IMG/VR virus record: IMGVR_UViG_3300037067_015007
Coordinates: 25,321-89,320 of that record
DNA from: a virus
Taxonomy: Duplodnaviria > Caudoviricetes
Reading direction: 5' to 3' (one strand)
Length of the DNA stretch: 64,000 bases
The first letter of the stretch is position 1; each line of letters opens with the position of its first letter. Positions 10,025-51,968 of this stretch are shown here, in pieces. The notes under the pieces are model-generated. The model saw only the letters and a list, made by a program, of their open reading frames with translations. It ran no database searches and was not told the DNA's origin. The position numbers and the translations under genes were made by a program.

Positions 10025-10121
10025 TAAATAGTAGTGAAGGACAGGGCTGACGAGCCTTTTTGAGATGCCTTAATCATTTCAAATTACTTCATTTATATTT
10101 TGACCGATTAAGGAGGGCAAA
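10025..10121 (+). ncRNA. endonuclease-leader structured RNA, copy 1 (TAAATA + 3-way junction + SD pseudoknot)
   Basis: P1 AGTGAAG/CTTCATT; P2 GGCT/AGCC; P3 TTTGAGATG/CATTTCAAA; loop CCTTAAT pairs with ATTAAGG (10107-10113), which overlaps the SD AGGAGG. Confidence 0.75.
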
Positions 10122-10691
10122 ATGAATTATAAACATCTTACTGAAGAAGAAAGAAAACAATCAAAACAAAGAAGAAATCATAGATATTATGAAAATAATA
10201 AAAAAAAGATAATTATAGAAGTAAAAAAATATCGTAAAAAACATAAAGAAATTTTACAGAAGTACAGTAAAAATTATTATCAAACTCATAAAAAGGAAAT
10301 AAATACTAATCATAAAAATTATCGTGAAAATCATAGAAAAGAAATGTCCAAATATATTGTAAATAGATTAAAAACAGACATAAATTTTAAACTTGCCCAT
10401 AATTTACGAAATAGATTGAGAAAGGCTTTACATCGTAACCAAAAATCGGGTTCCGCAGTTGGAGATTTAGGTTGTTCTATTTCTGCCCTCAAAACATATT
10501 TAGAATCCAAGTTTCAAGAGGGAATGGCTTGGGAGAATTGGAGTAAAACAGGTTGGCATATAGACCATATTATACCTTTGGATTCATTCAATCTTCAAAA
10601 TAGGGAAGAATTTCTAAAGGCTTGTCATTACACAAATCTTCAACCACTTTGGGCTGAAGAGAATATTACTAAAGGAAACAATTTATTATAA
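10122..10691 (+). CDS. HNH homing endonuclease
   Basis: Basic N-terminal repeats, then LGCS..LKTYLESKF..GM.WENW..GWHIDHIIPL..F....ACHYTNLQPLWAEEN. Confidence 0.9.
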   Translation: MNYKHLTEEERKQSKQRRNHRYYENNKKKIIIEVKKYRKKHKEILQKYSKNYYQTHKKEINTNHKNYRENHRKEMSKYIVNRLKTDINFKLAHNLRNRLRKALHRNQKSGSAVGDLGCSISALKTYLESKFQEGMAWENWSKTGWHIDHIIPLDSFNLQNREEFLKACHYTNLQPLWAEENITKGNNLL

Positions 10692-10744
10692 TAAATAATA
10701 TTGAAAAGGATTTTCTCTTTCACTTTCAATAAGGATTTCACAAT

Positions 10745-13465
10745 ATGGCAGAAGTTAATTTAAAAGACCTCGAAGCAATTCAAACCTCTCTGAAAAGCAT
10801 TTCAAGCAAGACAACTTTTGATGAAGTCAAAAAATCCATTGTTAATCTTGCTGATTCCTTAAAAGACAGTTTGGAAGAATTTCAAAAGAATGAAGCCAAA
10901 GCCCGACAGAGAAGAACCCAACTGAATGCAACCCATTTACAAGAAGAATTGAAAAAAAGACTTGACCTTAATAAAAAAATAATGACTTGGGAAGCAAAAC
11001 AGTTTGACGAAAGATTTGAATTGAACAAGCGTTATCATACAAGAGTAGTCAATGAACTGAAGAAGCAACATAAGGAAAGAGAGTTTCTTGAAAAAAGGAT
11101 GTTCTTGCGCCAAGCCGCAATGAATAAAGAATTTTACGGAAAGATAGATGAGAGTTTTAAAAAATTAAACGATAGGACTTCAAAACTTGCAGGAAAACTT
11201 GACTCTGTTTTTGGTACAGGATTTTTTACTTCTCTTCAAAAAATTTCAAGTTTAATTACAGGATTCACTAAAAATGCTTTGAAACTAACACTTGGGGGCT
11301 TACAATTTATACAAACAGCAAAACAAGGTGGGATAAAAAAAGCCTTTGCACAAACCAAAATAGGTAAAGGAATTCATACTGCTAAACGAACAGTAAGACG
11401 AGCCGCAAGCACTATTAGAAAGATTACAGGTGCAGGGGTTAGTGGAAGAATAGAAAGTAGAAAGGAAAAAGAAGAAGCAGAAAAATCCCAATCAGGTATA
11501 GCCAAAGGAATAGGAAAAACAGGAAAGACACAAGAAGCCGCACTTATAGGCCAAGTTAAATTTTTTGAATGGTTTAAAAAATTTGCAATATTTAAATGGC
11601 TTTGGGAAAAAGCAAATTTCGCCGCTGATAAATTATCCAAACTATTAGGCCTTGGTGGTGAAGGTGGGATTAAAGGTTTATTCAAAGCAGGATTAGGTAA
11701 ATTTTTTAGTACGGGAATAGGAAAATTTATAGGCGGTACTTCAGGCGGTCTCTTACAAAAAACTCTCACATCAATAGTGGGCCTAGGCGGGGCCATCGGC
11801 GGCATCAAAGGAGCCATCAAAGGAATAAGCCAATTTGGAGCTGTATCAAAAAAATATGGTGGGGGTGCTGAAGGCGATGCTATGGGTGTCGCTTATACTG
11901 CCAAAAAAATATCAAGTGGAATTTTATCAGGATTGACGTTGGGGTTAGTTTCTCCAAAAAGCATGGATAAACTAATCAATGCTGGTAGTAGAATAACTGA
12001 AAAATTTGTGGATGCTTTATCTCCTAATCAAAAATTTTATGATAAACTCAGTCAAGCAAAAACAGGATTAAGTAAACGTTCAATAGATATAGGAAAGACA
12101 TTGGATTCCATTATGGAAAAAACAGGGACAAAAGGCACGGGAGCCTCCCAAATGAAAGCAATTATGGCTGACAAGGAAAAATGGAACAAACTCAATAAAG
12201 AAGAACAAGAACTTGTTAGAAAAAAAGTAGAAGGTGCCAAAAAACTTCAACAAGTTGCCCAACTCCCTGCAAATAAACCTGTAGAAAAGAAGGCCGCACA
12301 AGGATTCCCTGGTATTAAAACACCAACAAAACTTGGAGACCTTTTTGGAAAAATTAGTAGGCAAACCAATCTTACTGTAGGTGAAGGTGGTGAAGAATAC
12401 TTAGCGGTTTTGAATAAAGAGCAATATAACGATATAAAAGGCTTACTAGGTACAAATTTACAATCTTTCAATTTATCGCAAAAATTAAAACCAAAACCAA
12501 AAACATTTATGCAAAATTTAGTTGATAAATTTAAACTATCAAAAAAGAAAGAATCTCCATTAGAAGATAAACCAAAAGACCAACAAAATATGGCCCCTAG
12601 TGCGAATATTGATTTGAGTTCTTTCACCATTCCTAATATCAACACAAGTATTCAAAAATTACAACCAACATTTAAAACTAAATTACTTGGAATGTTAGGA
12701 GAATATAAAAAATTATCAGGAAAACAAGCTCCTGTTAATGAGGCTTATCGTGATACGGAATATCAAAAAAAATTATATGAAGCAGACATTGCCAAAAAAA
12801 GATTAAATCCTGCTCATAGAATGAAAACAAATAAACCAGGAACATCTCCTCATGAAAAAGGCATCGCTGCCGATTTGAATACTGCTGATTTGGATGCGAT
12901 GGATTATAAGTATGGTTTAATAGATAAATATAAACTTAAAAGAGCATCAAGTTATTCTCGAATTGGTCCAGGTAAGAGACATGAAAGTTGGCATGTCCAA
13001 GCCGCAGAAGGTGCGGCATTTGATAAAGCACCTAAAGATTTCATGATGAAGGGTCATGCAGGAGAAGGGGCATTTGTTGCCAAGTCTAAAGAATTTACAA
13101 CCGTATTCAAATATTTTGAAATGGGTAAGAAACTTGCGGAAGAGGCTTCAGGTGCGGTTAAAGATGTATCGATGGCATTTGCTAAGGATAAGCCAGGACA
13201 AGCATTGAAAAATATGCAAAAAGAACAAGGCATAGGAGAAGGTAAAGATTCAAAAATTGTTAAATTACTTTCCGATATCAAAACAGGAATTGAAAAAGGA
13301 GCAAAACCTTCTGAAGAAAAAGAGGCTTCAAAATCCTCACCATCTGTTCCACCGTCAACAAAAGGCGGCGAGGCCAACTATAAATCAAGAAGTGATGTCT
13401 TTCCATCTGATACGATGTTTACAAATATGTACGCTCTAGTTTCGCAATTCAGCGGAGGATATTAA
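10745..13465 (+). CDS. tape measure protein with M15-type (VanY-like) peptidase motif
   Basis: Long helical/coiled-coil N-terminus, Gly/hydrophobic middle; YR..EYQKKLY...PGTSPHEKGIAADL...HESWHVQ; typical position. Confidence 0.8.
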   Translation: MAEVNLKDLEAIQTSLKSISSKTTFDEVKKSIVNLADSLKDSLEEFQKNEAKARQRRTQLNATHLQEELKKRLDLNKKIMTWEAKQFDERFELNKRYHTRVVNELKKQHKEREFLEKRMFLRQAAMNKEFYGKIDESFKKLNDRTSKLAGKLDSVFGTGFFTSLQKISSLITGFTKNALKLTLGGLQFIQTAKQGGIKKAFAQTKIGKGIHTAKRTVRRAASTIRKITGAGVSGRIESRKEKEEAEKSQSGIAKGIGKTGKTQEAALIGQVKFFEWFKKFAIFKWLWEKANFAADKLSKLLGLGGEGGIKGLFKAGLGKFFSTGIGKFIGGTSGGLLQKTLTSIVGLGGAIGGIKGAIKGISQFGAVSKKYGGGAEGDAMGVAYTAKKISSGILSGLTLGLVSPKSMDKLINAGSRITEKFVDALSPNQKFYDKLSQAKTGLSKRSIDIGKTLDSIMEKTGTKGTGASQMKAIMADKEKWNKLNKEEQELVRKKVEGAKKLQQVAQLPANKPVEKKAAQGFPGIKTPTKLGDLFGKISRQTNLTVGEGGEEYLAVLNKEQYNDIKGLLGTNLQSFNLSQKLKPKPKTFMQNLVDKFKLSKKKESPLEDKPKDQQNMAPSANIDLSSFTIPNINTSIQKLQPTFKTKLLGMLGEYKKLSGKQAPVNEAYRDTEYQKKLYEADIAKKRLNPAHRMKTNKPGTSPHEKGIAADLNTADLDAMDYKYGLIDKYKLKRASSYSRIGPGKRHESWHVQAAEGAAFDKAPKDFMMKGHAGEGAFVAKSKEFTTVFKYFEMGKKLAEEASGAVKDVSMAFAKDKPGQALKNMQKEQGIGEGKDSKIVKLLSDIKTGIEKGAKPSEEKEASKSSPSVPPSTKGGEANYKSRSDVFPSDTMFTNMYALVSQFSGGY

Positions 13466-13466
13466 A

Positions 13467-14671: not shown

Positions 14672-14682
14672 CATGAAAACAA

Positions 14683-14783
14683 TAAATAATAGTGTAGGGA
14701 CAAGGAGTAATTACCCATTCAGAATACCTCGTATATTCTGGATTACCTACACTATTTTAATAATTTTACGAGGGGGTTATTGA
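14683..14783 (+). ncRNA. endonuclease-leader structured RNA, copy 2
   Basis: P1 ATAGTGTAGG/CCTACACTAT; P3 TCAGAATA/TATTCTGG; loop CCTCGTA pairs with TACGAGG (14767-14773). Confidence 0.75.
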
Positions 14784-15365
14784 ATGTCAATACAAAAATA
14801 TTTTACTAAAGAAGAAAGAAGAATTGCACACAATAAAACTAATGAAAAATATCGTAGAAGTAAAGAAATAGTAGCAAGAAAAAAATTCAATACGGAAAAT
14901 GAAAGAATAGCAGCAGGAATAGAATATCAAAAACAATATTATCAAAACCACAAGAAAGAAAAATTAAAAAAAGAAAAAGAATATCGTAAAAATCATAAAG
15001 AAGAAAGAAATTTATGGGCAAGAAAACATGATAATGAAAAATATGAAACGAATATTAAGTTTAAACTTGCTAAAATTTTACGAAGTAGAATGCGTTTGGC
15101 AATTCACAATAATCAAAGAGCAGGTTCAGCAGTTCGAGACCTTGGATGTTCTATTCCTGAATTAAAAATATATTTAGAGAATAAATTTCAAGAAGGAATG
15201 ACTTGGGAAAATTGGAAACATAATGGTTGGCATATTGACCACGTTATTCCCTTGGATAACTTCAATCTTCAGAACAGGGAAGAGTTTCTAAAAGCATGTC
15301 ATTACACTAATCTTCAACCTTTGTGGGCTGAAGAAAATTTAAGTAAACATAATAAGGTGATATAA
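14784..15365 (+). CDS. HNH homing endonuclease
   Basis: GWHIDHVIPLDNFNL...ACHYTNLQPLWAEEN. Confidence 0.9.
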   Translation: MSIQKYFTKEERRIAHNKTNEKYRRSKEIVARKKFNTENERIAAGIEYQKQYYQNHKKEKLKKEKEYRKNHKEERNLWARKHDNEKYETNIKFKLAKILRSRMRLAIHNNQRAGSAVRDLGCSIPELKIYLENKFQEGMTWENWKHNGWHIDHVIPLDNFNLQNREEFLKACHYTNLQPLWAEENLSKHNKVI

Positions 15366-18480: not shown

Positions 18481-18499
18481 TAAATATATTGGAGGGAAA

Positions 18500-18664: not shown

Positions 18665-18667
18665 AAC

Positions 18668-19096: not shown

Positions 19097-19099
19097 AAC

Positions 19100-20602
19100 A
19101 TGGCTGATAGAATAAATGTATTGGCAGGAGATTTTGATACAATCCGTTCCGAACTGAATGCCAAATTATCCGTCCTTCCTGGTTGGAAAGACAATGTGGA
19201 AAGCGGAGTTGGTTCTAGTTTGGTTCGTATGTTTTCATATGTTGCAGATTTACTAAACTATCGTGTCAATGTTTTGGCAAATGAAAACTATTTAGATACA
19301 GCACAAATAAAAGAAAACATGATGAAGATTATCAAACTCTTGAACTATAAAGTAAAGAGAGCGGTTCCTTCTCATGGAGACCTTACCTTGTGGCTGAAAA
19401 ATGTTTCGGCTAACAATATCGTTATCCCACAAGGAACACGGTTATCAACCGCCGATAATACTCTCTTTTATACGGTTTATGAAAATGAAATCATAGCAGG
19501 TGATAAAGAAATCAGCGTAAAGGCAGTTCAGGGAGTACAAAAAGAAATTAGTTATGTGTCAGATGGTTCGAAAAATCAAGAGTTTCTTTTGAACTCCGAT
19601 AGCAAGAACTATTACATAGGTGGTGCAATTTGGCCCAATTCAGAATATGAATATTCAGGGCTGACGGTTTATGTCGATGACGTAGAATGGACGGAAATAG
19701 ATTCGTTGGTCAATGCAACCGCTACCGATATGGATTATTATGCGGAACAATATTCTGATTATGCGGTTCGAATTGTTTTCGGAGATGGAGACTTAGGGAA
19801 AATCCCGCCATCGGGTTCTATCATCAAGTTTGTATTCAACTTGAATATTGGAAAATTCGGGAACATCAACGCAGGCTCCATTACTCGTGTTCTCGATACT
19901 ATCAATGACACGGAAGCAAATCCTGTAACGGTTTACGTTACCCAATCACAATCATTCTTGAATGCAGGAGACCCTGAAGATATAGAATCAATTCGTTCCA
20001 ATGCCCCAAAATATTACACGACAGGAGACCGTGCAATTACCAATGATGATATCACAGCACTAATCAATGCCAACTTTTCAAATATTCTTGATATTTATAT
20101 TCTTTCAGAAGAAGATAAAAACCCGCCTAATTTCAAGGAGTTCAATCAAATCACTATTGGTTTGTTACTGCAAGATACAGATGGTGCCCCGCTTATCCCA
20201 TCATCAAATGGGGAAAATTATCTTTCCTATTATGAATCTGTTGATGAGTTGATAAAGAAAAAGAGGTCAATTACCGTTCATCGCAAATACATCATTCCTG
20301 CTCCTGTAGAAATACTTTTCAAAGTAACCTATAAAAAATATGACGGCTATACAGATTCATCAACTAGAGCCGCTATTCAAGGAGCCATTGAACAATATCT
20401 TTTGAATTATGGTCGATTGGGGGCAACCGTGAAATATTCAGATATAGTGTATGCCATTGAATCGCTTAGCAGTATTGATTGGTGTTACCTTGAAATGAAA
20501 AGAAGCACGGATGCAAGTTATTCAAATCAAAATATCGTTTGTGGAGAAACAGAATTTCCCGTAAAAGCAACAGGAACATATCTAACACTCACAAGGTCGT
20601 AA
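19100..20602 (+). CDS. baseplate wedge protein (T4 gp6 / baseplate J-like)
   Basis: DFDTIRSEL, D..ESGVGS.LV..FSY, ENYLDTA, VFGDGDLGKIP, GDPEDIESIRSNAP, RAIT.DD. Confidence 0.9.
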   Translation: MADRINVLAGDFDTIRSELNAKLSVLPGWKDNVESGVGSSLVRMFSYVADLLNYRVNVLANENYLDTAQIKENMMKIIKLLNYKVKRAVPSHGDLTLWLKNVSANNIVIPQGTRLSTADNTLFYTVYENEIIAGDKEISVKAVQGVQKEISYVSDGSKNQEFLLNSDSKNYYIGGAIWPNSEYEYSGLTVYVDDVEWTEIDSLVNATATDMDYYAEQYSDYAVRIVFGDGDLGKIPPSGSIIKFVFNLNIGKFGNINAGSITRVLDTINDTEANPVTVYVTQSQSFLNAGDPEDIESIRSNAPKYYTTGDRAITNDDITALINANFSNILDIYILSEEDKNPPNFKEFNQITIGLLLQDTDGAPLIPSSNGENYLSYYESVDELIKKKRSITVHRKYIIPAPVEILFKVTYKKYDGYTDSSTRAAIQGAIEQYLLNYGRLGATVKYSDIVYAIESLSSIDWCYLEMKRSTDASYSNQNIVCGETEFPVKATGTYLTLTRS

Positions 20603-20605
20603 AAT

Positions 20606-25112: not shown

Positions 25113-25610
25113 ATGGCAACGGTAAATAGCATACAAGTGGCTGTTACTACTGAAGGGTTAGAAAGTATAGCGGCAATGATAGCGGAAGGAACAGTTTTTA
25201 CAATTGCAACTTTTCGTCTATCAAATTTAGGAAATGAAAGTTATTTTGAAGCACAAAAAAGTTATACAGGCCTTGACCCTGATGCATTTTATATGCCATA
25301 TACAGCGGATGATTATGACATAAATGACGATGACCCCGCTATTGACGCACAACTTTATGCGGCAGGATTAGCCGATTCTGATGGTTATGTAACGGTCAAT
25401 TCAATCAGTTTGGCTGACCATATTACAGTTGAGATAGATTGTTATATTCCACCTGCGGTCGGAACTGCTTTCACTTCTAACGAAATCATGATTTATACGG
25501 GTTCAGGAACATTGGCAGACCCTTATAAATCTTTTATATGGGGAATTTTTCCTGAGATTACAAAACAGGAAAAATACGGAATCAATTTCAAAGTATTATT
25601 ACAATTCTAA
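25113..25610 (+). CDS. baseplate / tail-fibre attachment protein
   Basis: VTTEGLESIAAMIA N-terminus resembles fibre/collar N-terminal domains; TAAATA and GGAG upstream. Confidence 0.45.
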   Translation: MATVNSIQVAVTTEGLESIAAMIAEGTVFTIATFRLSNLGNESYFEAQKSYTGLDPDAFYMPYTADDYDINDDDPAIDAQLYAAGLADSDGYVTVNSISLADHITVEIDCYIPPAVGTAFTSNEIMIYTGSGTLADPYKSFIWGIFPEITKQEKYGINFKVLLQF

Positions 25611-25624
25611 TATGATAAAAACAA

Positions 25625-25719
25625 TAAATAATAGTGTAGGGACAAGGAGTAGCTACCCTTTCAAGATGCCTGTTCATCTTGGATTACCTACACTATTTTT
25701 GACCGAACAGGAGGGCAAA
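25625..25719 (+). ncRNA. endonuclease-leader structured RNA, copy 3
   Basis: P1 ATAGTGTAGG/CCTACACTAT; P3 TCAAGATG/CATCTTGG; loop CCTGTT pairs with AACAGG (25706-25711). Confidence 0.75.
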
Positions 25720-26319
25720 ATGGAAGAAGTAAAAAATATTATTTACAAAGCAAAGAATGAAGAAAGAAAATGTTTTTATGTTGGAAAATCTGTTTATGGA
25801 TTAACTGCAAGAAAACATCAGCATAAACATCGATGTTTTAAGACGAATTCAAATTATAAACTTTACAATTTTATCCGAAAATACGGTTGGGATACTTTTA
25901 CTTGGGAAATATTAGCAGTTTATTCCACACCTGAAGAACTACCACAAGCAGAGATAGATTGGTTAGTAGAACAAAAGAAAGAGTTTTCGGATTGGAAGTG
26001 TTTGAATTTGACAGATGGTGGAGATGGAAATTTAGGATGGAAACCTTCGGAAGAAATAAAAAGAAAAATTAGTGTTTCTAATAAAGGAGAAAAAAATCAT
26101 AATTTTGGGAAAACAATGACAAAAACACAAAAAGAAAAAATAGGTAAAAAATTAAAAGGCCGAATATTATCTAAAAAAACAAGAGAAAAAATGTCAAATT
26201 CAAAAAAAGGTAAAAATAATCCTATGTTTGGAATCCATCGTTTTGGGGAAAATGCTCCTAATTTTGGTCGTTTGAGAACTGATGTATCCACTTTGGAGAG
26301 AATAAAAAATGCCTGTTAA
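25720..26319 (+). CDS. GIY-YIG homing endonuclease
   Basis: IIYKAKN...FYVGKS; LNLTDGGDG; NUMOD3-like repeats. Start at ATG 25720 after GGAGGG. Confidence 0.85.
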   Translation: MEEVKNIIYKAKNEERKCFYVGKSVYGLTARKHQHKHRCFKTNSNYKLYNFIRKYGWDTFTWEILAVYSTPEELPQAEIDWLVEQKKEFSDWKCLNLTDGGDGNLGWKPSEEIKRKISVSNKGEKNHNFGKTMTKTQKEKIGKKLKGRILSKKTREKMSNSKKGKNNPMFGIHRFGENAPNFGRLRTDVSTLERIKNAC

Positions 26320-29198: not shown

Positions 29199-29816
29199 AT
29201 GTGGGGATTTATTTACGCTTATACCATAAAAAATAAAAAATATATTGGTCAGGCTATTAATTTAAAAGATAGAATGAAAAAACATTTTAAAGAAACAGCA
29301 AATCCTTATTTCCATAATTCTTTACGAAAATATTTTAAACCTGGCGATTTTCGTATTTTGGAAGCACATTATGATACTCCTGAAAAACTTAAAATTTTAT
29401 TAGATAATAGAGAAATTTTTTGGATTGATAAATTAAATACTTATGACCCTAAACAAAAAACAGGTTGGAATTTGACGAAAGGTGGTAATGGACAGTTAGG
29501 ATGGGTGCCTAATGAAAAAACAAGAAAAAAAATGTCAGATATTAAAATAGGTAAACCCACATGGAGTAAGGGCCAAAAATTTACCACAAAACACAAAGAA
29601 AATATTTCAAAAAATCATGCAAATGTTGCTAATGAAAATAATCCACGGGCGAAATCAGTTATATTAATCTCTCCAAATAATGAAAAATATCAATTAGAAT
29701 GTTATGCTCCTTTTTGTAAAAAAAATAAATTAAGTCCAGCGTCTATTTGTTTTGTTCTTCAGGGAAAACAAAAACATCATAAAGGATGGACAGGGAATTA
29801 TATAAATGCAAGGTAA
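29199..29816 (+). CDS. GIY-YIG homing endonuclease (no leader RNA)
   Basis: GFIYAYTIKNKKYIGQA; WNLTKGGNG. ATG directly after the upstream stop. Confidence 0.85.
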   Translation: MWGFIYAYTIKNKKYIGQAINLKDRMKKHFKETANPYFHNSLRKYFKPGDFRILEAHYDTPEKLKILLDNREIFWIDKLNTYDPKQKTGWNLTKGGNGQLGWVPNEKTRKKMSDIKIGKPTWSKGQKFTTKHKENISKNHANVANENNPRAKSVILISPNNEKYQLECYAPFCKKNKLSPASICFVLQGKQKHHKGWTGNYINAR

Positions 29817-31485: not shown

Positions 31486-31495
31486 ATGAAAATAA

Positions 31496-31590
31496 TAAAT
31501 AGTAGTGTAGGGACAGGGAGTCATGACCCTTTCAAGATGTCCACTCATCCTGAATTACCTACACTATATTTTGACCAAGTGGAGGGGCAA
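31496..31590 (+). ncRNA. endonuclease-leader structured RNA, copy 4
   Basis: P1 TAGTGTAGG/CCTACACTA; P3 TTCAAGATG/CATCCTGAA; loop TCCACT pairs with AGTGGA (31578-31583). Confidence 0.75.
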
Positions 31591-32136
31591 ATGGATAATC
31601 AAAACGGAACGATTTATATAGCCACCAATCTAATCAATAGAAAGCAATATGTGGGGCAAACTATTAGAACTTTGAAAGAAAGAATAAACTGTCATAAATC
31701 TTCTCTTTCTTATTGTTTTGGAAATGCTATCAAAAAATACGGAATTCAAAATTTTAAATGGGTTCCTATTGAATATCCTATTGAAGAATTAGATAAAATG
31801 GAGTGTTTTTGGATTCAAACACTAAACACCATTAGGCCTAATGGATATAATTTACAATATGGTGGACAAAAATCTCATTCTTATTCAGAAGAATTAAAAA
31901 GAAAAATGAGAGAAAATCATACAGATTATTCAGGAAAAAATCACCCTCGTTTTGGTTTACATTGGGATGAAGAACACAAACAAAATCAAAGTAAAAAATT
32001 AAAAGGTAGGTTTATAGGTGAAAAAAATCCTAATTTTGGCAATAAATGGACACAAGAACAAAAAGATGCATTGAGTAAGAAAAAGAAAGAAATGCATCAA
32101 AATAAGATACAAAGAATAAATAATATAGAGGAGTAA
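31591..32136 (+). CDS. GIY-YIG homing endonuclease
   Basis: GTIYIATNLINRKQYVGQT; PNGYNLQYGG. Confidence 0.85.
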   Translation: MDNQNGTIYIATNLINRKQYVGQTIRTLKERINCHKSSLSYCFGNAIKKYGIQNFKWVPIEYPIEELDKMECFWIQTLNTIRPNGYNLQYGGQKSHSYSEELKRKMRENHTDYSGKNHPRFGLHWDEEHKQNQSKKLKGRFIGEKNPNFGNKWTQEQKDALSKKKKEMHQNKIQRINNIEE

Positions 32137-34475: not shown

Positions 34476-35018
34476 ATGAAAAAGAAATATTTTACAGAAG
34501 AAGAAAAAATAATTGCTAAAAAAGAATATCAAAAGAAGTATAAAAAAACGCATAAAGAAGAAAGAAAAAAATATGATAAAAAGTATTGTCAAAATCACAA
34601 AGAAAATATAGCCATAAAGAAGAAAGAATATTATGAAAACCATAAAGAAAAAACAAATATATATCAAAAAGAATATAGAAATAATAGATTAAAAAAAGAT
34701 ATTAATTTTAGAATGATTTGCTATTTACGAAGTAGAATGTATTGGTCAATTAGAGGAAACTATAAATCAGGCTCCGCAGTCAGAGACCTCGGTTGTCCTA
34801 TTTCTGAATTTAAGACCTATATAGAATCAAAGTTCCAAGACGGAATGACTTGGGAAAATTGGAGTAAAACGGGTTGGCATATAGACCATATTATACCTTT
34901 AGATTCTTTCAATCTTCAGAATAGGGAAGAATTTCTAAAAGCCTGTCATTATACAAATCTTCAACCTATGTGGGCTGAAGAGAATTTGAGAAAAGGGGGT
35001 AAAGTATGCCGAACATAA
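34476..35018 (+). CDS. HNH homing endonuclease (no leader RNA)
   Basis: GWHIDHIIPL...ACHYTNLQPMWAEEN. ATG directly after the upstream stop. Confidence 0.9.
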   Translation: MKKKYFTEEEKIIAKKEYQKKYKKTHKEERKKYDKKYCQNHKENIAIKKKEYYENHKEKTNIYQKEYRNNRLKKDINFRMICYLRSRMYWSIRGNYKSGSAVRDLGCPISEFKTYIESKFQDGMTWENWSKTGWHIDHIIPLDSFNLQNREEFLKACHYTNLQPMWAEENLRKGGKVCRT

Positions 35019-38420: not shown

Positions 38421-38428
38421 GAGGAAAA

Positions 38429-40279: not shown

Positions 40280-41668
40280 ATGGACAAAATGTATTTTATG
40301 TCGAGTGATATGTTTACTATGACTGCACCTACACAAAAATTTGTAACATGGGACGCTGAAAAAGGCACATGGGTTTTAAATGAAGAGCGTTGGTTTAACT
40401 ATTGCGCTTTAGATATGGCGAACCGTGGTGTGAATATGTTTCGTTGGTTAGGTTGGAGCGTATGGCCTAATTGGACTGACCCGAATGGGTACAAGACCAA
40501 TCTCACACCTTTCATTCAAGTTTCAGATGGTGTGTTTGACCTCACGAAACGCAATGACAAGTATTGGGAAATTGCGGAAAAAATGATTCGGATTATGAAT
40601 TATCCTTCGCAAACAGAAGGAAATACGGCTCCTGGTATTACGCTTTGGATTGACCTTTTCTATCAGTACACAAATAACGCCGATGACCAAAAGTATTCAC
40701 CTTGGCGCAATAACGTTCAAGGAACCAAAAATCTTTACGACATCGAGAACCGTCAGTACGCATTGGCATATATGTTGGAATGGTTCAAACTCGCAAAGGA
40801 AAAAGGTCTAAAGATTGTTTTCGGAATGGGTAATGAAATGACGGCAGAAAGCCTTGACTTTTGTTATTTCGTGTTGGATACAATGGACCAGCAAAGAATT
40901 TGGCCTCACGCTTGGGCAATCTGTCCTGATATTCCTTCAAACGGCAACGACCTTTTCAAGAAACTTCCAGGTTATATTTATGATAGAGGTTTATTCATGT
41001 GGCATCCGCTACGTCAAGACCCCGCAGACAGATGGGATACGAGTATCATTCGTCCGACCCACGGCTGTTGCGGTTGCGTGAACAACCAAGGTGTGAACGT
41101 ATTTGAACAGGCTATGGATTATTGGGCTGTTCATCCTATCCGTTGGCAAGTGAGTGATGACGGTTGCATGGGTGGTTCTACACCACGTCCAGGCGTTGAC
41201 CAATGGACACAGATGGTAACTCGTATCTGCACCTATCGTGGAACAGAAGCCTTGACGAAAGTTTGGAACGGTATTGAAATGCCAATTATGGGTATTGAAC
41301 ATCTTCCTGATGATGAACCTTGGGATGATTGTAGAGAAGAACAACTCAAAATCTTTGAGGCAATGGCGGCTCCTTATGAACTGTATGTTGCCCCATTGGA
41401 GAACAAGGGAAAGTGGACTGTTCCTTATGTGAAACCCGAATGTGAAGTGGGACAGAGCAAAACAATAACCTGTTATGATGGTTCGGTTATCATAACCCAT
41501 ACTTGTGAAAATGGAAAATGGAAAGAAACAGGTAATACTTGTCCTACCCCGCCTGACCAAAAATGTTCCTGTTTTTACTATATAAATTGGAACGACAAAT
41601 TATTTGGAATTCCAAATTTTATCAAATGTATCACAGGAAAGATAGATAAATATTGTAAAAATAAATAA
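40280..41668 (+). CDS. glycoside-hydrolase-like TIM-barrel protein with Cys-rich tail
   Basis: GVNMFRW, FGMGNE (GH-A clan-like NE motif), GIEH; Trp-rich; TAAATA and AAGGAGG upstream. Confidence 0.45.
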   Translation: MDKMYFMSSDMFTMTAPTQKFVTWDAEKGTWVLNEERWFNYCALDMANRGVNMFRWLGWSVWPNWTDPNGYKTNLTPFIQVSDGVFDLTKRNDKYWEIAEKMIRIMNYPSQTEGNTAPGITLWIDLFYQYTNNADDQKYSPWRNNVQGTKNLYDIENRQYALAYMLEWFKLAKEKGLKIVFGMGNEMTAESLDFCYFVLDTMDQQRIWPHAWAICPDIPSNGNDLFKKLPGYIYDRGLFMWHPLRQDPADRWDTSIIRPTHGCCGCVNNQGVNVFEQAMDYWAVHPIRWQVSDDGCMGGSTPRPGVDQWTQMVTRICTYRGTEALTKVWNGIEMPIMGIEHLPDDEPWDDCREEQLKIFEAMAAPYELYVAPLENKGKWTVPYVKPECEVGQSKTITCYDGSVIITHTCENGKWKETGNTCPTPPDQKCSCFYYINWNDKLFGIPNFIKCITGKIDKYCKNK

Positions 41669-41676
41669 TAAAACAC

Positions 41677-41772
41677 TAAATAATAGTGTAGGAACAAGGT
41701 TCGCTACCCTTCTAAAAGGCCACACTCTTTTGGATTACCTACACTAAAATTCAACTTGTGTGGAGGCTGAAA
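41677..41772 (+). ncRNA. endonuclease-leader structured RNA, copy 5
   Basis: P1 TAGTGTAGG/CCTACACTA; P3 TCTAAAAG/CTTTTGGA; loop CCACAC pairs with GTGTGG (41758-41763). Confidence 0.75.
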
Positions 41773-42351
41773 ATGAAAAGAAAATTTAATTCAGAGGAAG
41801 AAAGGAGATTAGCAAAGAACGAGCGGGAAAGACGATATTATGAAAAAAATGATAAGGAAGTAAGATTGTTAATTTGTAAAAAATATCGTGAAAAGAATAA
41901 AGAAATATTAAAAATGAAAAGACGAGAATATTATCAAAAGCACAAAGAAGAATTCAAATCATATGCAAAAAATTATAATAAAAATCATAAAGAAGAAAGA
42001 AATATATATTATAATAACAGAATAAAAACAGATATAAATTTTAAACTCTCTTGTGGTTTACGATGTAGATTGAATAAAGCCCTCAGAGGAAATCAAAAAT
42101 CAGGTTCAGCAGTTCAAGACCTAGGTTGTTCCATCCCCGAATTTAAATTATATTTAAAATCTAAATGGAAAGACGGAATGAATTGGGATAACTATGGATT
42201 TTATGGATGGCATATAGACCATATTATACCTTTAGATTTTTACGACCTTCAAAATAGAGAAGAATTCTTAAAAGCCTGTCATTATACAAATCTTCAGCCA
42301 TTGTGGGCAGAGGAAAATATAACAAAGGGTAATAAAATAGTAATAAAATGA
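41773..42351 (+). CDS. HNH homing endonuclease
   Basis: GWHIDHIIPL...ACHYTNLQPLWAEEN. Confidence 0.9.
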   Translation: MKRKFNSEEERRLAKNERERRYYEKNDKEVRLLICKKYREKNKEILKMKRREYYQKHKEEFKSYAKNYNKNHKEERNIYYNNRIKTDINFKLSCGLRCRLNKALRGNQKSGSAVQDLGCSIPEFKLYLKSKWKDGMNWDNYGFYGWHIDHIIPLDFYDLQNREEFLKACHYTNLQPLWAEENITKGNKIVIK

Positions 42352-42518
42352 ATACAATAATAAAAAGTTCAATGTCAGTAGCGGGGGAAATTTTTACATC
42401 GGGTTATTGTAATCTGAATTGCTCCTATTGTTATATTGAGAAAACAGATTATCTTAAAAAACTCCATCAAGATATCATCAAGAAAATTCAGACAGGGGAC
42501 ATTATTTGGAATACCTAA
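42348..42518 (+). pseudogene. truncated divergent copy of the radical SAM N-terminus fused to a copy of the 40280 gene's 3' end
   Basis: MNTIIKSSMSVAGEIFTSGYCNLNCSYCYIEKT...IQTG matches the start of 43277; 42498-42600 nearly duplicates 41594-41700. Confidence 0.8.
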
Positions 42519-42575
42519 TTTCTTGAAATGTATCACAGGTAATAAAGATAAGTATTGTAAAAAATAACAAAACAC

Positions 42576-42672
42576 TAAATAATAGTGTAGGGACAAGGAG
42601 TAATTACCCATCTAAGATGCCTACTCATCTTGGATTACCTACACTATATTTTGACCAAGTAGGAGGCAAAAG
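42576..42672 (+). ncRNA. endonuclease-leader structured RNA, copy 6
   Basis: P1 ATAGTGTAGG/CCTACACTAT; P3 TCTAAGATG/CATCTTGGA; loop CCTACT pairs with AGTAGG (42658-42663). Confidence 0.75.
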
Positions 42673-43290
42673 ATGAATCAAGGAAAAGAAGGTATTGTGT
42701 ACATAGCAACGAATTTGATTAATAATAAACAATATATTGGGCAAACGGTAAGAAAATTAAAATATCGTTTATATGAACATATTCATCACCCTGATAATAG
42801 TTATCCTTTTAGTAAAGCATTGAGAAAATATGGTATTGAAAATTTTAAAATTGTTCCTTTTTCTTGTCTTGAAAAAGATTTGGATTGGACAGAAAGTTTT
42901 CTAATAAAAAAGTTAAATACACTAAAACCCAACGGTTATAATCTTGAAAGTGGTGGGAATAATCAAAAACATCTTCACGAAGTAACAAAAAACAAAATAT
43001 CCAAAAAAACAAAAGGGGAAAATAATCCTCGATATGGAATAAAGTTAGAAGAAGAAACAAAAGAAAAAATTAGAGAAAGTATTAATGAATGGTATAAAAC
43101 ACACGAAGCACCGAGTAAGGGTATTTTAAAAACAAAAGAAGAAAAAATAAAACTATCTGAAGCAAGAAAAAAATATTATGAAATACACGAATCACCATTT
43201 AAAGGTAAACGACATTCAAAAGAAGCAAAAGAAAAAATGAGAATATCAAGATTAGAATATTTAAAAAGGATTAAAAATGAGCGTAATTAA
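42673..43290 (+). CDS. GIY-YIG homing endonuclease
   Basis: GIVYIATNLINNKQYIGQT; PNGYNLESGG. Confidence 0.9.
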   Translation: MNQGKEGIVYIATNLINNKQYIGQTVRKLKYRLYEHIHHPDNSYPFSKALRKYGIENFKIVPFSCLEKDLDWTESFLIKKLNTLKPNGYNLESGGNNQKHLHEVTKNKISKKTKGENNPRYGIKLEEETKEKIRESINEWYKTHEAPSKGILKTKEEKIKLSEARKKYYEIHESPFKGKRHSKEAKEKMRISRLEYLKRIKNERN

Positions 43291-44674
43291 ATCAGAATTA
43301 TCCGTTGCAGGAGAAATTTTCACTTCTGCTTTATGTGCAGGGGCCAATTGTAATTATTGTTATATAGAAAAAACGCCACATCTTCAAGAATTACAAAAAA
43401 ATCTGATAAAAAAATTACAAAGTGGTGAATATATTGGGGAATTAAAAAAATTGTACGGTGAAAAATTAACTGCTTTAGCCTTTTGGGGTGCGGAACCTAC
43501 CACCACCCTTAATTATATAACGGAAAAAATTCCCGAACTTCTAAATACTTTCCCGACCTTGACAGAGATTTCATTCTCTACAAATATGTTATCAGACCCA
43601 ACAATAATAAAAAATTTTATTATGAAGGTGATGGAACAAAACAGAAACATAATGATAAAGATACAATGCTCAATTGATGGGCCTCCAGAGGTAACGGATT
43701 TAAATAGAAGTCAAGGTGCGACTGCAAAAATTAAAGGGAATTTTTTAAAATTATTACAGCAATTACAAAGTGAAAATTTAAAAAATACAAAAATAAAATT
43801 CCATTTTAAACCAACTTGGTCAATTGAAAATTTAAATTGGCTTAATGAAGAGGAATCTAGGTATCGGTATTATTTCTTTTTCTTTGATGAGTGGATAGAC
43901 CTTGCAAAAGGAATCAATAGGCAAAAAAATATTTATTTAGACTTAAATGGTGTTCCATCAATGTCTGTTCCTGGCACATATAGTTCAGAAGATGGTAAGA
44001 TATGGGCAAAAACCTGTTGGCATTTAAAGCGTTTATCTAATGAACAAAGACAACGACCCTTTTTAAAACATCAAAATGCTTCATTCAATACATATACTTA
44101 CAGATTGATACGGCTGTTTGATTTCAGCAGAGAATTCTTTTCAAAGCCTGATATGTTTTCCTGTTCAGCAGGACGTTCACAAAATCAATTAGGGGAACTT
44201 CAAGACCTTCATTTATGTCATCGTTCTCTTTTTATGAATCATTCCGAATATGAAAAAGAATTAAGGAACGAAGGAAATTGGGATTTTCATTTACAACAGA
44301 AAGACAGAATAAAATTGGTGAAGGAAAAACATATTGTAGATATCAATAATCAATTAGAAGTTGATAGAGCATTTTATACTTGGTCTTGTTTTCAGACTTT
44401 TTCTAAACATAAAACAGCGACAAGTTTAGCACTTATCAAAGAGTTAGTATATAGTAAACAAATAAGTGAAGATTTTGCAGATGAAAACCTTGCCACTTTG
44501 TTCGCCATATTCATTAACTACGGTTTAGGCTGCCCTATGGAAAATATTTTACAAACAGGAAGTTTGTTTACTAGTCCCATTTCGCTATTTAGACTGTTTG
44601 GGGCATCTGATAATAATTTACCTTGTGCGTTCCAAATTATATTAGAGGAAGCAAGAAGTGAAATTAATAAATAA
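43277..44674 (+). CDS. radical SAM protein, atypical CX4CX2C motif, degenerate SPASM-like tail
   Basis: ALCAGANCNYCY; AFWGAEPT; FSTN; CSIDGP; later CSAG...LCHR...GCP. Confidence 0.75.
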   Translation: MSVIKSELSVAGEIFTSALCAGANCNYCYIEKTPHLQELQKNLIKKLQSGEYIGELKKLYGEKLTALAFWGAEPTTTLNYITEKIPELLNTFPTLTEISFSTNMLSDPTIIKNFIMKVMEQNRNIMIKIQCSIDGPPEVTDLNRSQGATAKIKGNFLKLLQQLQSENLKNTKIKFHFKPTWSIENLNWLNEEESRYRYYFFFFDEWIDLAKGINRQKNIYLDLNGVPSMSVPGTYSSEDGKIWAKTCWHLKRLSNEQRQRPFLKHQNASFNTYTYRLIRLFDFSREFFSKPDMFSCSAGRSQNQLGELQDLHLCHRSLFMNHSEYEKELRNEGNWDFHLQQKDRIKLVKEKHIVDINNQLEVDRAFYTWSCFQTFSKHKTATSLALIKELVYSKQISEDFADENLATLFAIFINYGLGCPMENILQTGSLFTSPISLFRLFGASDNNLPCAFQIILEEARSEINK

Positions 44675-44767
44675 TAGTGAAAGACAGGGGTTGCAACCCT
44701 TTCTAAAATGCTTATCCTATTTTAGATTATTTCACTATTTTTATTTTGACTTGGATAAGGAGACAAA
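44668..44767 (+). ncRNA. endonuclease-leader structured RNA, copy 7
   Basis: P1 ATAGTGAAA/TTTCACTAT (compensatory changes relative to other copies); P2 GGGTTGCAACCC; loop CTTATCC pairs with GGATAAG (44753-44759). Confidence 0.75.
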
Positions 44768-45451
44768 ATGAGTCAAGAAGTTGGAACAATTTATGTGGCT
44801 ACCAATTTAGTGAATGGAAAGCAGTATGTGGGGCAAACAACAATAACATTAAAAGAGCGGTGGTATCAACATAAAAACGGTACTAATTGCCCACTTATTC
44901 ATAGAGCAATTCAAAAATACGGTATGGAAAAATTTAAGATTATTTCCTTTCCTTGTCTTGAAGAAGATTTGGATTGGACAGAAGGGTTTTTACAAAAAGA
45001 ATTTAATACTATCGCACCAAATGGATACAATTTAATATTGAATGAAGCACAACACAGACGACATAACGAGAGTTCAAAAGAAAAAATGAAAAAAAATCAC
45101 GCAGATTTTTCAGGTAAAAATCATCCTCAATATGGATTAAGAGGAGAAAAAAGTGTAAATTTTGGTAGAGTTTTCTCACAAGAAGAAAAAGAAAAGGTAA
45201 AAGAGGGATTATTAAAATATTTTCAAAAGTTCCCGCAAGCACATAAAGGTAAAAATAATCCTATGTTTAATAAAGAACACAGATTAGATACCAAAGAAAA
45301 AATGAAATTATCAAAAATAGGAAAATACTTTGGTAAAAATAATCCCAATTTTGGTCATAAGTGGACACAAGAACAGAAAGATGCACAAAGTAATAAAATG
45401 AAATTAATAAAACAAAAGAGGCAAAATGAACACATTTCAGAAACAGAATAA
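44768..45451 (+). CDS. GIY-YIG homing endonuclease
   Basis: GTIYVATNLVNGKQYVGQT; PNGYNL; NUMOD3-like repeats. Confidence 0.9.
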   Translation: MSQEVGTIYVATNLVNGKQYVGQTTITLKERWYQHKNGTNCPLIHRAIQKYGMEKFKIISFPCLEEDLDWTEGFLQKEFNTIAPNGYNLILNEAQHRRHNESSKEKMKKNHADFSGKNHPQYGLRGEKSVNFGRVFSQEEKEKVKEGLLKYFQKFPQAHKGKNNPMFNKEHRLDTKEKMKLSKIGKYFGKNNPNFGHKWTQEQKDAQSNKMKLIKQKRQNEHISETE

Positions 45452-47236: not shown

Positions 47237-47257
47237 ATAGTATAGAGGAGTTTTGAT

Positions 47258-47881: not shown

Positions 47882-47883
47882 GG

Positions 47884-48402: not shown

Positions 48403-48429
48403 TAACTTGATATAAAATTTAAAAAGGAT

Positions 48430-50865: not shown

Positions 50866-50986
50866 AGAACCTCTTGTTAAAATCTAACATATCCTGAAGG
50901 AATTTCTTCCTGTTCAGTTTCATAACAGCCTTACTAGGTCTTTTTACTTTTTTGATTTTAACAGTATCTCTTCCCATTTCATACTC

Positions 50987-51415: not shown

Positions 51416-51807
51416 GCGTTCTTATCCTTTTCGTAATGTTCACAGCAACGGCCCAAGATGTAAAATGATTTCTTGTCTTTCTTGACAAAGACGAGATTCG
51501 ACTTGTCGCCGCTCTTGATGTAGCCCTTGGAACAACCACCCCAATCATTGCGAATGGCGCAGTTGTCGCAACTCAATTTCAGGTGGTTCATCACCGAGAC
51601 AAACCGCAACTTGTTCACGGTTCTTGTTTCGGTCGGAGTCATGCCGATAATCTGCGCCGACACACCTTCGATGTGCTTGCAAATGATATGGCGAAACTTC
51701 CATTGCGGACAAGAGCACCCGAAATCGCCCTCTTCAGAACGGGCCACGGTATAGAACTTGGTCGGGTCGCTCTCTGATTGAACTGACCATCGGTCAACCC
51801 ATTTCAT
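51412..51807 (-). CDS. SWIM zinc-finger protein
   Basis: WSVQSES...FYTV......GCSCPQW.....CKHI. Confidence 0.8.
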   Translation of the reverse strand: MKWVDRWSVQSESDPTKFYTVARSEEGDFGCSCPQWKFRHIICKHIEGVSAQIIGMTPTETRTVNKLRFVSVMNHLKLSCDNCAIRNDWGGCSKGYIKSGDKSNLVFVKKDKKSFYILGRCCEHYEKDKNA

Positions 51808-51833
51808 ATTTGTTCTCCTTATTCATCATTGAT

Positions 51834-51862
51834 ATTATACCACACTTTGTAATGCTTGTCAA
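51834..51862 (-). promoter_or_regulatory. sigma70/sigmaA-type early promoter
   Basis: TTGACA-17 bp-TATAAT, perfect consensus, upstream of 51807. Confidence 0.85.
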
Positions 51863-51872
51863 GTCTTTTCAC

Positions 51873-51968
51873 TAAATAATAGTGTAGGGACAGGGGATGC
51901 AACCCTTTTTGAAAAGCCATGTCTTTTCAGATTACCTACAATAAATTAAACTTACATGGAGGTTTAAA
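51873..51968 (+). ncRNA. endonuclease-leader structured RNA, copy 8
   Basis: P1 TGTAGG/CCTACA; P3 TTGAAAAG/CTTTTCAG; loop CCATGT pairs with ACATGG (51954-51959). Confidence 0.75.

Follow-up and report, generated by a model that had tools for sequence, protein, structure and literature searches.

Introduction

In plasmids of the IncI-alpha and IncB groups, a hairpin loop ahead of repZ (repA) pairs with bases adjacent to the ribosome-binding site, and a leader open reading frame (ORF) ends at the gene start. This pseudoknot activates translation; its target lies inside an inhibitory stem, and the loop is contested by an antisense RNA. In the operators of ribosomal proteins L20, S15, and S4, and in T4 gene 32, long-range loop pairing at the Shine-Dalgarno (SD) sequence represses translation, each system being autoregulated by its own RNA-binding protein product. 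Fully paired kissing loops of 6–7 nt are formed by ColE1 RNA I/RNA II and by TAR-TAR*, and phi29 pRNA also uses loop pairing. In T-even phages, structures which sequester the ribosome-binding site restrict translation of the homing endonuclease genes I-TevI, I-TevII, I-TevIII, segB, and Aeh1 mobE (PMC2988022). The PeSL cassettes of T4-like phages consist of a terminator stem-loop and an early promoter (PMC2839356, PMC4122927).

Here we describe a folded RNA leader of ~95 bases found ahead of eight selfish nuclease genes, all on the plus strand, in a 64-kb stretch of DNA from an uncultured giant phage (the whole of which we call the window). Like the T-even hairpins, it precedes selfish phage nucleases, is predicted to bury the SD in RNA structure, begins with a late-type promoter motif, and would restrict nuclease translation. 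However, the T-even hairpins are single and gene-specific, whereas the leader is a conserved four-helix fold with at least 57 copies ahead of at least three nuclease families. T-even endonuclease genes also carry their late promoter inside the 5′ arm of the hairpin, so that late transcripts escape the lock, while the promoter-like motif of the leader lies 5′ of the whole structure. We therefore rejected an I-TevI-type single hairpin with an arm-internal late promoter. With PeSL cassettes, which act as exchange points between unrelated sequences and are repeated in hyperplastic regions, the leader shares the character of a short repeated promoter cassette beside accessory ORFs, and it could be an exchange point too; in contrast to the leader, PeSL has neither a link to an SD nor a kissing interaction. 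Identity with PeSL was rejected because the late-like motif precedes the structure, which lies on the translated strand, because no U-tract follows the hairpins, and because the copies lie mostly among late structural genes.

Compared with the IncI-alpha/IncB pseudoknot, the target in the leader is an exposed loop, the pairing covers bases of the SD itself, and no antisense partner for the loop was found (complementarity of ≥12 nt, 89-kb record). Autoregulation of the ribosomal-protein kind is implausible because four unrelated nuclease families share the leader. As in ColE1, TAR, and pRNA, all loop bases are paired and loop sequences covary between relatives, but those interactions are intermolecular and do not mask a ribosome site. 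We found no publication describing the leader.

Results

A covariance model of the three-way junction recovered all eight leaders of the preliminary description, with the layout and positions given there, at 72–86 bits (E 1e-14 to 1e-17), and found no further copy in the window (Table 1). In the whole 89-kb virus record, which CheckV estimates to be 39% complete, the same search found 11 copies, and in IMG/VR at least 57 non-redundant copies. All of the IMG/VR copies come from one clade of large myoviruses, of which one complete relative measures 223 kb. No Rfam 15 family matched the 64-kb window at gathering score, and none overlapped a leader at E≤10 in positions 41600-44800, which hold three copies; the leader thus remains an uncatalogued cis-RNA, as first proposed.

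Table 1. Positions of the leaders, their loops, and the genes they precede in the window.
Feature	Position	Strand	L3	L4 (anti-L3)	Remarks
Leader copy 1	10025..10121	+	10068-10074 CCTTAAT	10107-10113 ATTAAGG	TAAATAGTA motif; P1 short variant GTGAAG/CTTCAT, P2, P3, P4; 77.9 bits
HNH-type nuclease gene	10122..10691	+			189 aa
Leader copy 2	14683..14783	+	14727-14733 CCTCGTA	14767-14773 TACGAGG	
HNH-type nuclease gene	14784..15365	+			193 aa
Leader copy 3	25625..25719	+	25669-25674 CCTGTT	25706-25711 AACAGG	
GIY-YIG + NUMOD3 nuclease gene	25720..26319	+			199 aa
Leader copy 4	31496..31590	+	31540-31545 TCCACT	31578-31583 AGTGGA	
GIY-YIG + NUMOD3 nuclease gene	31591..32136	+			181 aa
Leader copy 5	41677..41772	+	41720-41725 CCACAC	41758-41763 GTGTGG	J1/2 = AACA
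HNH-type nuclease gene	41773..42351	+			192 aa
Leader copy 6	42576..42672	+	42620-42625 CCTACT	42658-42663 AGTAGG	98 bits (in a separate search)
GIY-YIG + NUMOD3 nuclease gene	42673..43290	+			205 aa
Leader copy 7	44668..44767	+	44711-44717 CTTATCC	44753-44759 GGATAAG	P1 variant GTGAAA/TTTCAC; 85.8 bits
GIY-YIG + NUMOD3 nuclease gene	44768..45451	+			227 aa
Leader copy 8	51873..51968	+	51917-51922 CCATGT	51954-51959 ACATGG	
HNH-type nuclease gene	51969..52565	+			198 aa; ~35-aa tail non-homologous

The eight downstream genes had been described as four HNH and four GIY-YIG genes. The GIY-YIG half of this assignment is borne out by Pfam matches to PF01541 (GIY-YIG) and PF07460 (NUMOD3) in the proteins starting at 25720, 31591, 42673, and 44768, with which a genome-wide scan was concordant; the GIY-YIG score of the 25720 protein is slightly under the cut-off. 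The proteins starting at 10122, 14784, 41773, and 51969 form one family with a C-terminal HIDH...N...NLQPLW...N motif, and WHIDH...N...YTNLQP(L/M)W...N is invariant in 15 family members. They match phrog_1035, “endonuclease VII,” at 1e-7 to 1e-9 and an HNH phrog weakly, but Pfam HNH was not significant for these four, and by sequence they have no relative in the PDB; we call them HNH-type. At least three families are preceded by the leader (GIY-YIG, HNH-type, DUF7487/DUF559, and a second HNH-like nuclease), and all 42 complete downstream ORFs belong to nuclease families or, as a singleton, are Cys-rich and HNH-like. Thus the leader is indeed shared by unrelated families of homing endonucleases, as had been claimed, but not by all such genes: 3/11 nuclease genes in the window lack it, as do HNH-family relatives in other phages. 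Its distribution is that of a single phage clade rather than of a nuclease family.

The predicted junction consists of P1 (6–7 bp), a short P2, and P3 (8 bp with a loop of 6–8 nt), and the fold rests on this prediction together with covariation. Among 54 distinct sequences, pairing occurs in 94.4% of cells versus 83.9% in shuffles, and both partners have changed in 14/18 pairs, among them 8/8 of P3 and 4/6 of P1, where compensatory changes had already been noted. Covariation of P1 and P3 is strong. Support for P2 is thin, with two near-invariant GC pairs and variable extras; in the divergent copies L071/L072 both P2 and P3 are completely re-paired. When the most divergent copies are included, only ~5 bases of the junction are invariant (A18, C19, and the A-U-N-A of J3/1), while the sequences of P3, L2, and L3 drift.

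In all eight window copies, the P3 loop (L3) is, as originally reported, the exact reverse complement of a segment overlapping its own SD, and all intact copies have 6–8 contiguous Watson-Crick pairs between this loop and the bases at the SD. At least six contiguous pairs occur in cis in 39/39 parsed copies, versus only 2% of non-cognate loop/tail combinations; mean complementarity is 6.7 nt in cis and 3.7 nt in trans, with duplex energies of −9.4 and −4.5 kcal/mol, respectively. These 39 copies carry 32 distinct loops, and each of positions 3–7 of the loop-loop helix shows all four Watson-Crick pair types. The 11 loops of this genome all differ from each other, and each pairs best, or nearly so, with its cognate partner. 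As read from the sequences, complementarity ends at the loop edges; P3 and the kiss would thus coexist.

The earlier model of a three-way junction plus pseudoknot holds for the junction, but L3 is predicted to pair with the loop (L4) of a fourth covarying hairpin, P4, and not with a free strand. With L4 as the target of L3, the “pseudoknot” would be a complex of kissing loops in which the whole ribosome site is buried. P4 and this kissing-loop arrangement are new in this analysis. A hairpin of 5–12 bp encloses the partner segment in 43/43 copies (mean z −2.7); positional pairing of P4 is 82.6%, versus 37–63% when slid, and 7/7 P4 pairs covary in a model-based alignment. Stem energies are weak (−0.4 to −7.5 kcal/mol). 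Many P4 pairs place a U opposite an SD-side G, which on the other strand would be an A-C mismatch; this assigns the fold to the sense RNA. In 8/8 window copies and in 43/43 analyzed, the SD is predicted to be divided between L4, where it pairs with L3, and the 3′ strand of P4, in agreement with the original view that the leader buries it. The remaining SD bases, followed by the spacer that leads to the AUG, make up this strand.

The leader begins with a late-promoter-like TAAATARTA motif, and P1 starts 3–6 nt after it. The AAAACAATAAATARTA context is also found ahead of non-nuclease late genes starting at 3537, 25113, 32143, and 47258, and TAAATA lies within 70 nt upstream of 8/36 non-nuclease late genes, compared with ~1.9 expected. 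A TAAATAATA motif at 32117, inside the 3′ end of the gene starting at 31591, precedes the next gene, and copy 5 has a second TAAATAATA at 41662. If transcription starts ~6 nt after TAAATA, the cassette’s own transcripts would lack the first 2 (at most 2–3) nt of P1. The stop codon of the upstream gene often lies inside the TAAATAA.

A short leader ORF, which has no SD, runs through the fold in about half of the copies. A start codon is present at −10 or −13 in 23/43 copies, versus ~9% by chance, and no stop interrupts its frame within the junction in 38/43, compared with 9/43 and 6/43 for the other two frames; these copies come from a few lineages, and the counts are not independent. When the start codon is present, the frame either ends between −19 and +1 relative to the nuclease ATG or continues in frame into the nuclease in 22/23 copies; when it is absent, the frame ends suitably in 7/20. 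A gap of 0–1 nt separates the upstream stop from the leader-ORF ATG that follows it in copies 2, 3, and 4. The leader ORF of copy 2 starts at 14673 and its TGA stop abuts the nuclease ATG, while the upstream ATGs of copies 3 (25612) and 4 (31486) are in frame with the nuclease. Window copies 1, 5, 6, and 8 have no leader-ORF start codon and keep the full fold.

Discussion

From the fold and its genes we infer that the leader, with its promoter-like motif, is probably a cis-acting translational lock ahead of a free-standing homing endonuclease gene, and that its most likely effect would be to keep nuclease production low. The three-way junction of P1, P2, and P3 would form, with P4 3′ of it, and L3 would pair base for base with L4 in a kissing complex. 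With an SD that runs from the 3′ end of L4 into the beginning of the P4 3′ strand, a formed kiss would make the entire ribosome-binding site double-stranded and exclude the 30S subunit, such that a strong SD and a probable late promoter would still yield little nuclease. The main role of the junction may be that of a scaffold presenting the P3 loop; as a structure at the 5′ end, it would probably also shield a poorly translated mRNA. The T-even structures that sequester the ribosome-binding site are a precedent for such a lock. Counted against it are the weak P4 stems, the thin support for P2, and the three nuclease genes of the window that do without the leader.

Because a simple hairpin would suffice for occlusion, the conserved junction, strong promoter, and strong SD hint at conditional release. 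The junction might bind a protein (of phage or host), a small molecule, or an RNA in trans which stabilizes or releases the kiss, making synthesis conditional and not merely damped. Its invariant bases amid drifting helices and loops, the combination of a lock with a strong SD and a promoter-like motif, and the protein-stabilized loop-to-RBS pseudoknots known from the L20, S15, and S4 operators speak for such a switch, but we consider it unlikely, since so few invariant bases hardly make a ligand pocket, the well-aligned part of the leader contains no conserved alternative fold or helix, the rest of the 89-kb record yields no complementary RNA of ≥12 nt, and Rfam returned no riboswitch match. 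Alternatively, as in IncI-alpha/IncB repZ-repY, ribosomes on the leader ORF, begun by those leaving the upstream gene, would melt P1, P3, and P4 and pass to the nuclease start, with nuclease made from read-through transcripts only. The excess of start codons, the open frame, the placement of its ends, and the upstream stops of copies 2, 3, and 4 agree with this, and read-through of a leader ORF coupled to the upstream gene could also open the fold of a lock in about half of the copies. We give translation-coupled release only a minor chance of being the explanation, because the other half of the copies lack the start codon (four of them in the window, with the fold intact), because the counts derive from few lineages and the ORF has no SD, and because the plasmid pseudoknot activates translation and has a stem-buried target, whereas the target here is a loop.

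A junction that blocks 5′-dependent RNases, or marks cleavage from the upstream late message, with SD pairing secondary, would fit the position of P1 just past the promoter-like motif, hence at the extreme 5′ end of a transcript, and the frequent termination of the upstream gene within TAAATAA; we think such a stabilizing or processing role improbable, as it leaves unexplained both P4 and a loop partner that always contains SD bases and covaries with the loop. It is very doubtful that L3 finds its L4 on a second molecule of the same mRNA, hand in hand as in phi29 pRNA: the distinct loops of this genome could be addresses for homo-oligomers, but the two loops lie ~30 nt apart on one chain, where we estimate from helix and linker lengths that they can meet, and mRNA oligomers have no apparent function. 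Equally remote is a self-cleaving ribozyme or an element acting only as DNA (a recombination site, nuclease target, or promoter). The ribozyme and ligand readings offered in the preliminary description drew no positive evidence; there was no match to a ribozyme family of Rfam, and few unpaired bases are invariant. At the DNA level, the repeats could be exchange points like PeSL cassettes (PMC4122927), and the leader block does occur in unrelated contexts; such a role may coexist with one in RNA, but it does not account for the covariation, and the G-U pairs, constant sense orientation, and coupling to the SD favor RNA.

More speculatively, and with a low probability in our estimation, the translational lock would be programmable and conditionally opened, its junction receiving a clade-specific signal that releases all of the phage’s nuclease genes together. 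The signal may be a phage protein, a metabolite, or upstream ribosomes acting via the leader ORF, and a gene-specific kissing “address” may keep the locks orthogonal. If so, the leader would represent a modular riboregulator of a new class, one that can naturally be transferred between unrelated genes.

The portability of the module, already suspected, is illustrated by copy 2 and locus L020, which have only a 148-bp leader block in common, their flanks and ORFs being unrelated; the leader appears to travel as a ~150-bp module. The cassette of copy 8 is antisense to its minus-strand neighbors, and thus needs its own promoter.

Leader structure and distribution

The ~95-nt leaders that precede nuclease genes in the window form a genuine cis-regulatory RNA family that is uncatalogued and has unusually clean covariation; its fold, its covariation and its association with these genes are shown here. 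The preliminary description had proposed a fixed order of elements, and that order was present in all eight window copies: TAAATA(A/G)TA, P1, (G/A)ACA, P2, TT, P3, (G/A)ATTA, P1′, an A/U-rich linker, a purine-rich Shine-Dalgarno sequence (SD) and ATG, with P1, P2 and P3 forming a three-way junction. A covariance model of the junction (R1) scored the eight window copies at 72–86 bits and matched 11 copies in the whole 89-kb record. It also matched eight in a relative whose 223-kb genome is complete and has terminal repeats, and five in another relative, of 169 kb. Scanning IMG/VR with a sequence pattern returned 61 loci, the full element being found in ~45, and 57 non-redundant copies were collected in all. 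In bacterial and archaeal genomes, the 97 pattern matches approximated chance expectation, and none of 80 fetched loci passed R1. R1 is a narrow model, and more distant analogues of the leader may lie beyond its reach. Rfam gave no match at the leaders, either at the gathering score or at a permissive E-value. We found no description of the motif in the literature, although it may be among the more than 10,000 candidate viral RNAs catalogued in 2023 (PMC10690425).

Among 54 distinct junction sequences, 94.4% of cells were paired, compared with 83.9% after shuffling and 39–62% when the partners were slid. Both sides changed at all eight pairs of P3 and at four of the six pairs of P1, and a MAFFT alignment gave a similar result. 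The P1 statistics were taken from two alignments of the copies (A2 and A3), because alignment to a second covariance model that includes P4 (R2) misplaces the short P1 variant. P2 is short, with two nearly invariant G-C pairs and variable extra pairs. In two divergent IMG/VR copies (L071 and L072), P2 is re-paired as AAAGG/CCUUU, and P3 is an entirely different GC-rich helix.

Predicted kissing interaction at the Shine-Dalgarno sequence

In 39 of 39 parsed copies, the P3 loop (L3) forms 6–8 contiguous Watson-Crick pairs with bases abutting or overlapping the SD, while only 2% of non-cognate combinations of loop and SD side attain 6 pairs; 32 distinct loops occur among these 39 copies. The loop-SD duplex has an energy of -9.4 kcal/mol in cis versus -4.5 in trans, and all four Watson-Crick pair types are found at each of positions 3 to 7 of the helix. 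No two of the 11 loops in the 89-kb record are alike, and each loop pairs best, or nearly best, with its own partner. As read from the sequences, the complementarity stops exactly at the edges of the loop, which implies that P3 is formed simultaneously with the loop-SD helix.

The exact loop-to-SD complementarity asserted in the preliminary description thus stands; what does not is the partner as a plain SD-side segment, which is instead the loop (L4) of a fourth hairpin, P4. The linker immediately 5′ of the partner segment forms one strand of P4, and the other strand consists of the SD's 3′ part plus the spacer up to the AUG. Folding with the partner segment constrained to be unpaired gave a 5–12-bp enclosing hairpin in 43 of 43 copies (mean z-score -2.7 against shuffles of the 5′ flank), and pairing scored by position about the segment, -k against +k, was 82.6% versus 37–63% when slid. 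P4 uses several pair types, and 7 of 7 pairs change on both sides in the R2 alignment; the 3′ tail as aligned by MAFFT (A7) does not follow the structure. P4 and the kissing fold are present in all eight window copies. Because the SD-side partner is itself the P4 loop, the L3-L4 interaction is modeled as a kissing-loop complex. The SD (GGAGG, GAGGAG and similar) straddles L4 and the 3′ strand of P4, and it is therefore fully paired in the predicted fold. Many P4 pairs are U-G, with the G on the SD side; on the other strand each would become an A-C mismatch, and the structure was therefore assigned to the sense RNA.

Proposed mechanism and its release

The position of the SD, together with the precedent of the T-even phages, suggests that the leader represses translation of the nuclease. 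The SD, which is strong, optimally spaced and downstream of a probable late promoter, would be held by a double lock consisting of the L3:L4 kiss and P4. The junction would be transcribed first, presenting L3, and L4 would pair as it emerged, ahead of binding of the 30S subunit. The outcome would be a low, tunable nuclease level, set for each gene by the variable loop pair and the variable strength of P4. Placed at the very 5′ terminus, the junction would in addition protect a seldom-translated mRNA.

How such a lock would open can be read in more than one way. A leader open reading frame (ORF), enriched over chance and not universal, starts 10 or 13 nt before TAAATA and spans the whole fold, and its translation may release the lock in a subset of copies. 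A start codon (ATG, GTG or TTG) lies at -10 or -13 in 23 of 43 copies, in the only frame that TAAATAATAG leaves open. Across the junction this frame lacks stops in 38/43 copies, whereas the other two lack them in 9/43 and 6/43. In 22 of the 23 copies with a start codon and 7 of the 20 without, it either ends between -19 and +1 relative to the nuclease ATG or runs into the nuclease in frame. These counts overstate independence, as the copies come from few lineages. A ribosome translating this frame would open both P3 and P4 before terminating at the start of the nuclease gene. However, window copies 1, 5, 6 and 8 keep the fold without a leader-ORF start codon. A protein or ligand may also act on the junction to open the lock, although we found no positive evidence for action of either.

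Other readings of the element were tried and dropped. For a tRNA-like reading (7-bp P1, 7-nt loop), ARAGORN gives no tRNA in the window; for a trans-acting complementary RNA, the 89-kb record holds no complement of at least 12 nt to the junction elsewhere. Dimerization through self-complementary P2 loops was set aside when palindromes proved not to be enriched (12 of 25 distinct P2 segments versus 37% of shuffled cores), and a bistable alternative fold when no conserved covarying helix of at least 4 bp was found other than the kissing helix. The idea that the loop address matches the ribosome-binding site (RBS) of the displaced downstream gene, and so senses the nuclease-free allele, gave no convincing match by eye in copies 1 and 4.

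Homing endonucleases are toxic passengers, and, to our knowledge, the way in which phages keep them silent has been described for only a few T-even genes, which have one-off hairpins. The plasmid repZ system resembles the leader in its loop-to-RBS pairing and leader ORF; in repZ, however, the pairing activates translation, unlike the role proposed here. The RBS structures of I-TevI, I-TevII, I-TevIII, segB and mobE each consist of one hairpin that contains the late promoter in its 5′ arm (PMC2988022); the leader would work alike, but it is a conserved four-helix kissing fold lying wholly downstream of the promoter-like motif. Like the PeSLs (PMC4122927), the leader is a repeated, exchange-prone cassette, although PeSL anatomy differs. 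SD sequestration on phage nuclease genes is already known as a kind of mechanism; new are the architecture of the leader, its reuse across families, its high copy number and its modular address. One compact fold is reused before at least three unrelated nuclease families, 11 times in an 89-kb record and on dozens of metagenomic contigs. For RNA biologists, it offers an uncatalogued family whose function is open to testing with simple loop and compensatory mutants. The 6–7-nt loop pair is a natural exchangeable address that may interest engineers of translational control, and the leader is a marker for mobile nuclease cassettes in uncultured phage genomes.

The 5′ promoter-like motif

The TAAATA(A/G)TA motif, often inside AAAACAATAAATA(A/G)TA, occurs 12–53 nt before eight non-nuclease genes on the + strand, against a chance expectation of ~1.9. 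It is clearest at the genes starting at 3537, 25113, 32143 and 47258, with an SD within a few bases downstream. The T4 late promoter is TATAAATA. Phage nuclease genes use this promoter (PMC2988022), and by analogy the TAAATA(A/G)TA motif is a probable late promoter. Its TAA frequently serves as the stop codon of the upstream gene. Two nuclease genes have the motif at their 3′ end or within it (10692 and 32117), which gives the impression that the cassette re-supplies the promoter of the gene it displaced. Any expression of copy 8, which is antisense to all of its neighbors, must come from a promoter of its own. Two tandem TAAATAATA motifs, 15 nt apart, precede copy 5 (window 41662–41685).

Nuclease genes with and without leaders

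The window copies divide, as the preliminary description had it, into four before HNH-type and four before GIY-YIG genes. Leaders precede 42 complete ORFs, of which 19 are GIY-YIG/NUMOD3; 16 belong to a family of HNH-type look with an invariant WHIDH...N...YTNLQP(L/M)W...N motif, which matches phrog_1035 and for which Pfam HNH is not significant; six carry DUF7487, some together with DUF559 (Vsr-like endonuclease fold); and one encodes a Cys-rich protein with an HNH-like C-terminus. This last protein, encoded at IMG/VR locus L020, is a further unclassified nuclease-like passenger.

The HNH-type family occupies at least 583 IMG/VR loci, and only 2 of the 80 closest have the leader, both from the same phage clade as the window. 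Upstream of 79 HNH-family relatives in other phages, a structure-independent search showed no enrichment of complementarity between loop and RBS (3.09 nt versus 3.20 nt in controls). Thus, the leader is tied to the phage lineage and not to the nuclease family.

Three nuclease genes in the window have no leader, and an SD precedes only one of them, at 29199 (GGAGAAGG); all three resemble translationally coupled cassettes without a promoter. A small Cys-containing ORF (window 1369–1606, + strand) lies behind a TAAATAGAAGTG motif, and its TAA is 2 nt 5′ of the leaderless GIY-YIG gene at 1607. In the HNH-type ORF of copy 8, family homology ends after EENLTKG and is followed by ~35 unrelated codons (window 52463–52565), a tail that is presumably read-through into the flank of the antisense insertion.

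Coordinates of leaders, leader ORFs, promoter-like motifs and nuclease genes in the window, in IMG/VR leader loci (L009, L020, L041) and in a related phage genome (G001)
Feature	Location	Strand	Remark
Leaders, copies 1–8	window 10025, 14683, 25625, 31496, 41677, 42576, 44668, 51873	+	
Leader ORF (M-K-T-I-N-N-S...)	window 14673-14783, 25612-25719, 31486-31590		ends at nuclease ATG or fused in frame
(AAAACAA)TAAATA(A/G)TA sites	window ~3512, 10692, 25091, 32117, 47234	+	before non-nuclease late genes
GIY-YIG gene without leader	window 1607-2320	+	start at or within a few bases of upstream stop codon
GIY-YIG gene without leader	window 29199-29816	+	start at or within a few bases of upstream stop codon
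HNH-type gene without leader	window 34476-35018	+	start at or within a few bases of upstream stop codon
Cys-rich protein, 199 aa, C-terminal CPTCH-type motif	L020:4-600	-	behind leader nearly identical to window copy 2
Orphan or truncated leaders	L041:8854-8959; L009:8596-8665		
Leaders followed by nuclease remnants	G001 19954-20205, 25452-25529, 124000-124386		stop codons or N-terminal stub only

Mobility and decay of the cassettes

Copy 2 and the L020 leader share a 148-bp block at 88.5% identity, with the same loop address. The block begins ~10 nt ahead of TAAATA and ends ~37 nt inside the ORF. Beyond it, the two loci have unrelated sequence on either side, and their proteins are not related to each other. 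The leader moves as a block of ~150 bp. In the complete 223-kb relative, decayed nuclease remnants lie behind several leaders. The cassettes are decaying in related phages, a life cycle expected of selfish cassettes. Cassettes 5 (HNH-type) and 6 (GIY-YIG) stand back to back, 224 nt apart.

The source phage

The window, AT-rich at 36.8% GC, covers the 3′-terminal 64 kb of an 89,320-bp IMG/VR record, and its + strand carries a myovirus late structural module with tail sheath, baseplate wedge, hub and tail fibers. As the record, despite this length, is only 39% complete by CheckV, the source phage is probably a jumbo phage. Among INPHARED phages, nucleotide matches were absent for the leader and for one large structural gene. 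In a 906-aa late protein (window 10745–13465, + strand), residues 633–752 weakly match, at ~38% identity, a peptidase/endolysin domain of T4-like Campylobacter phages, the sole link found to cultured phages.
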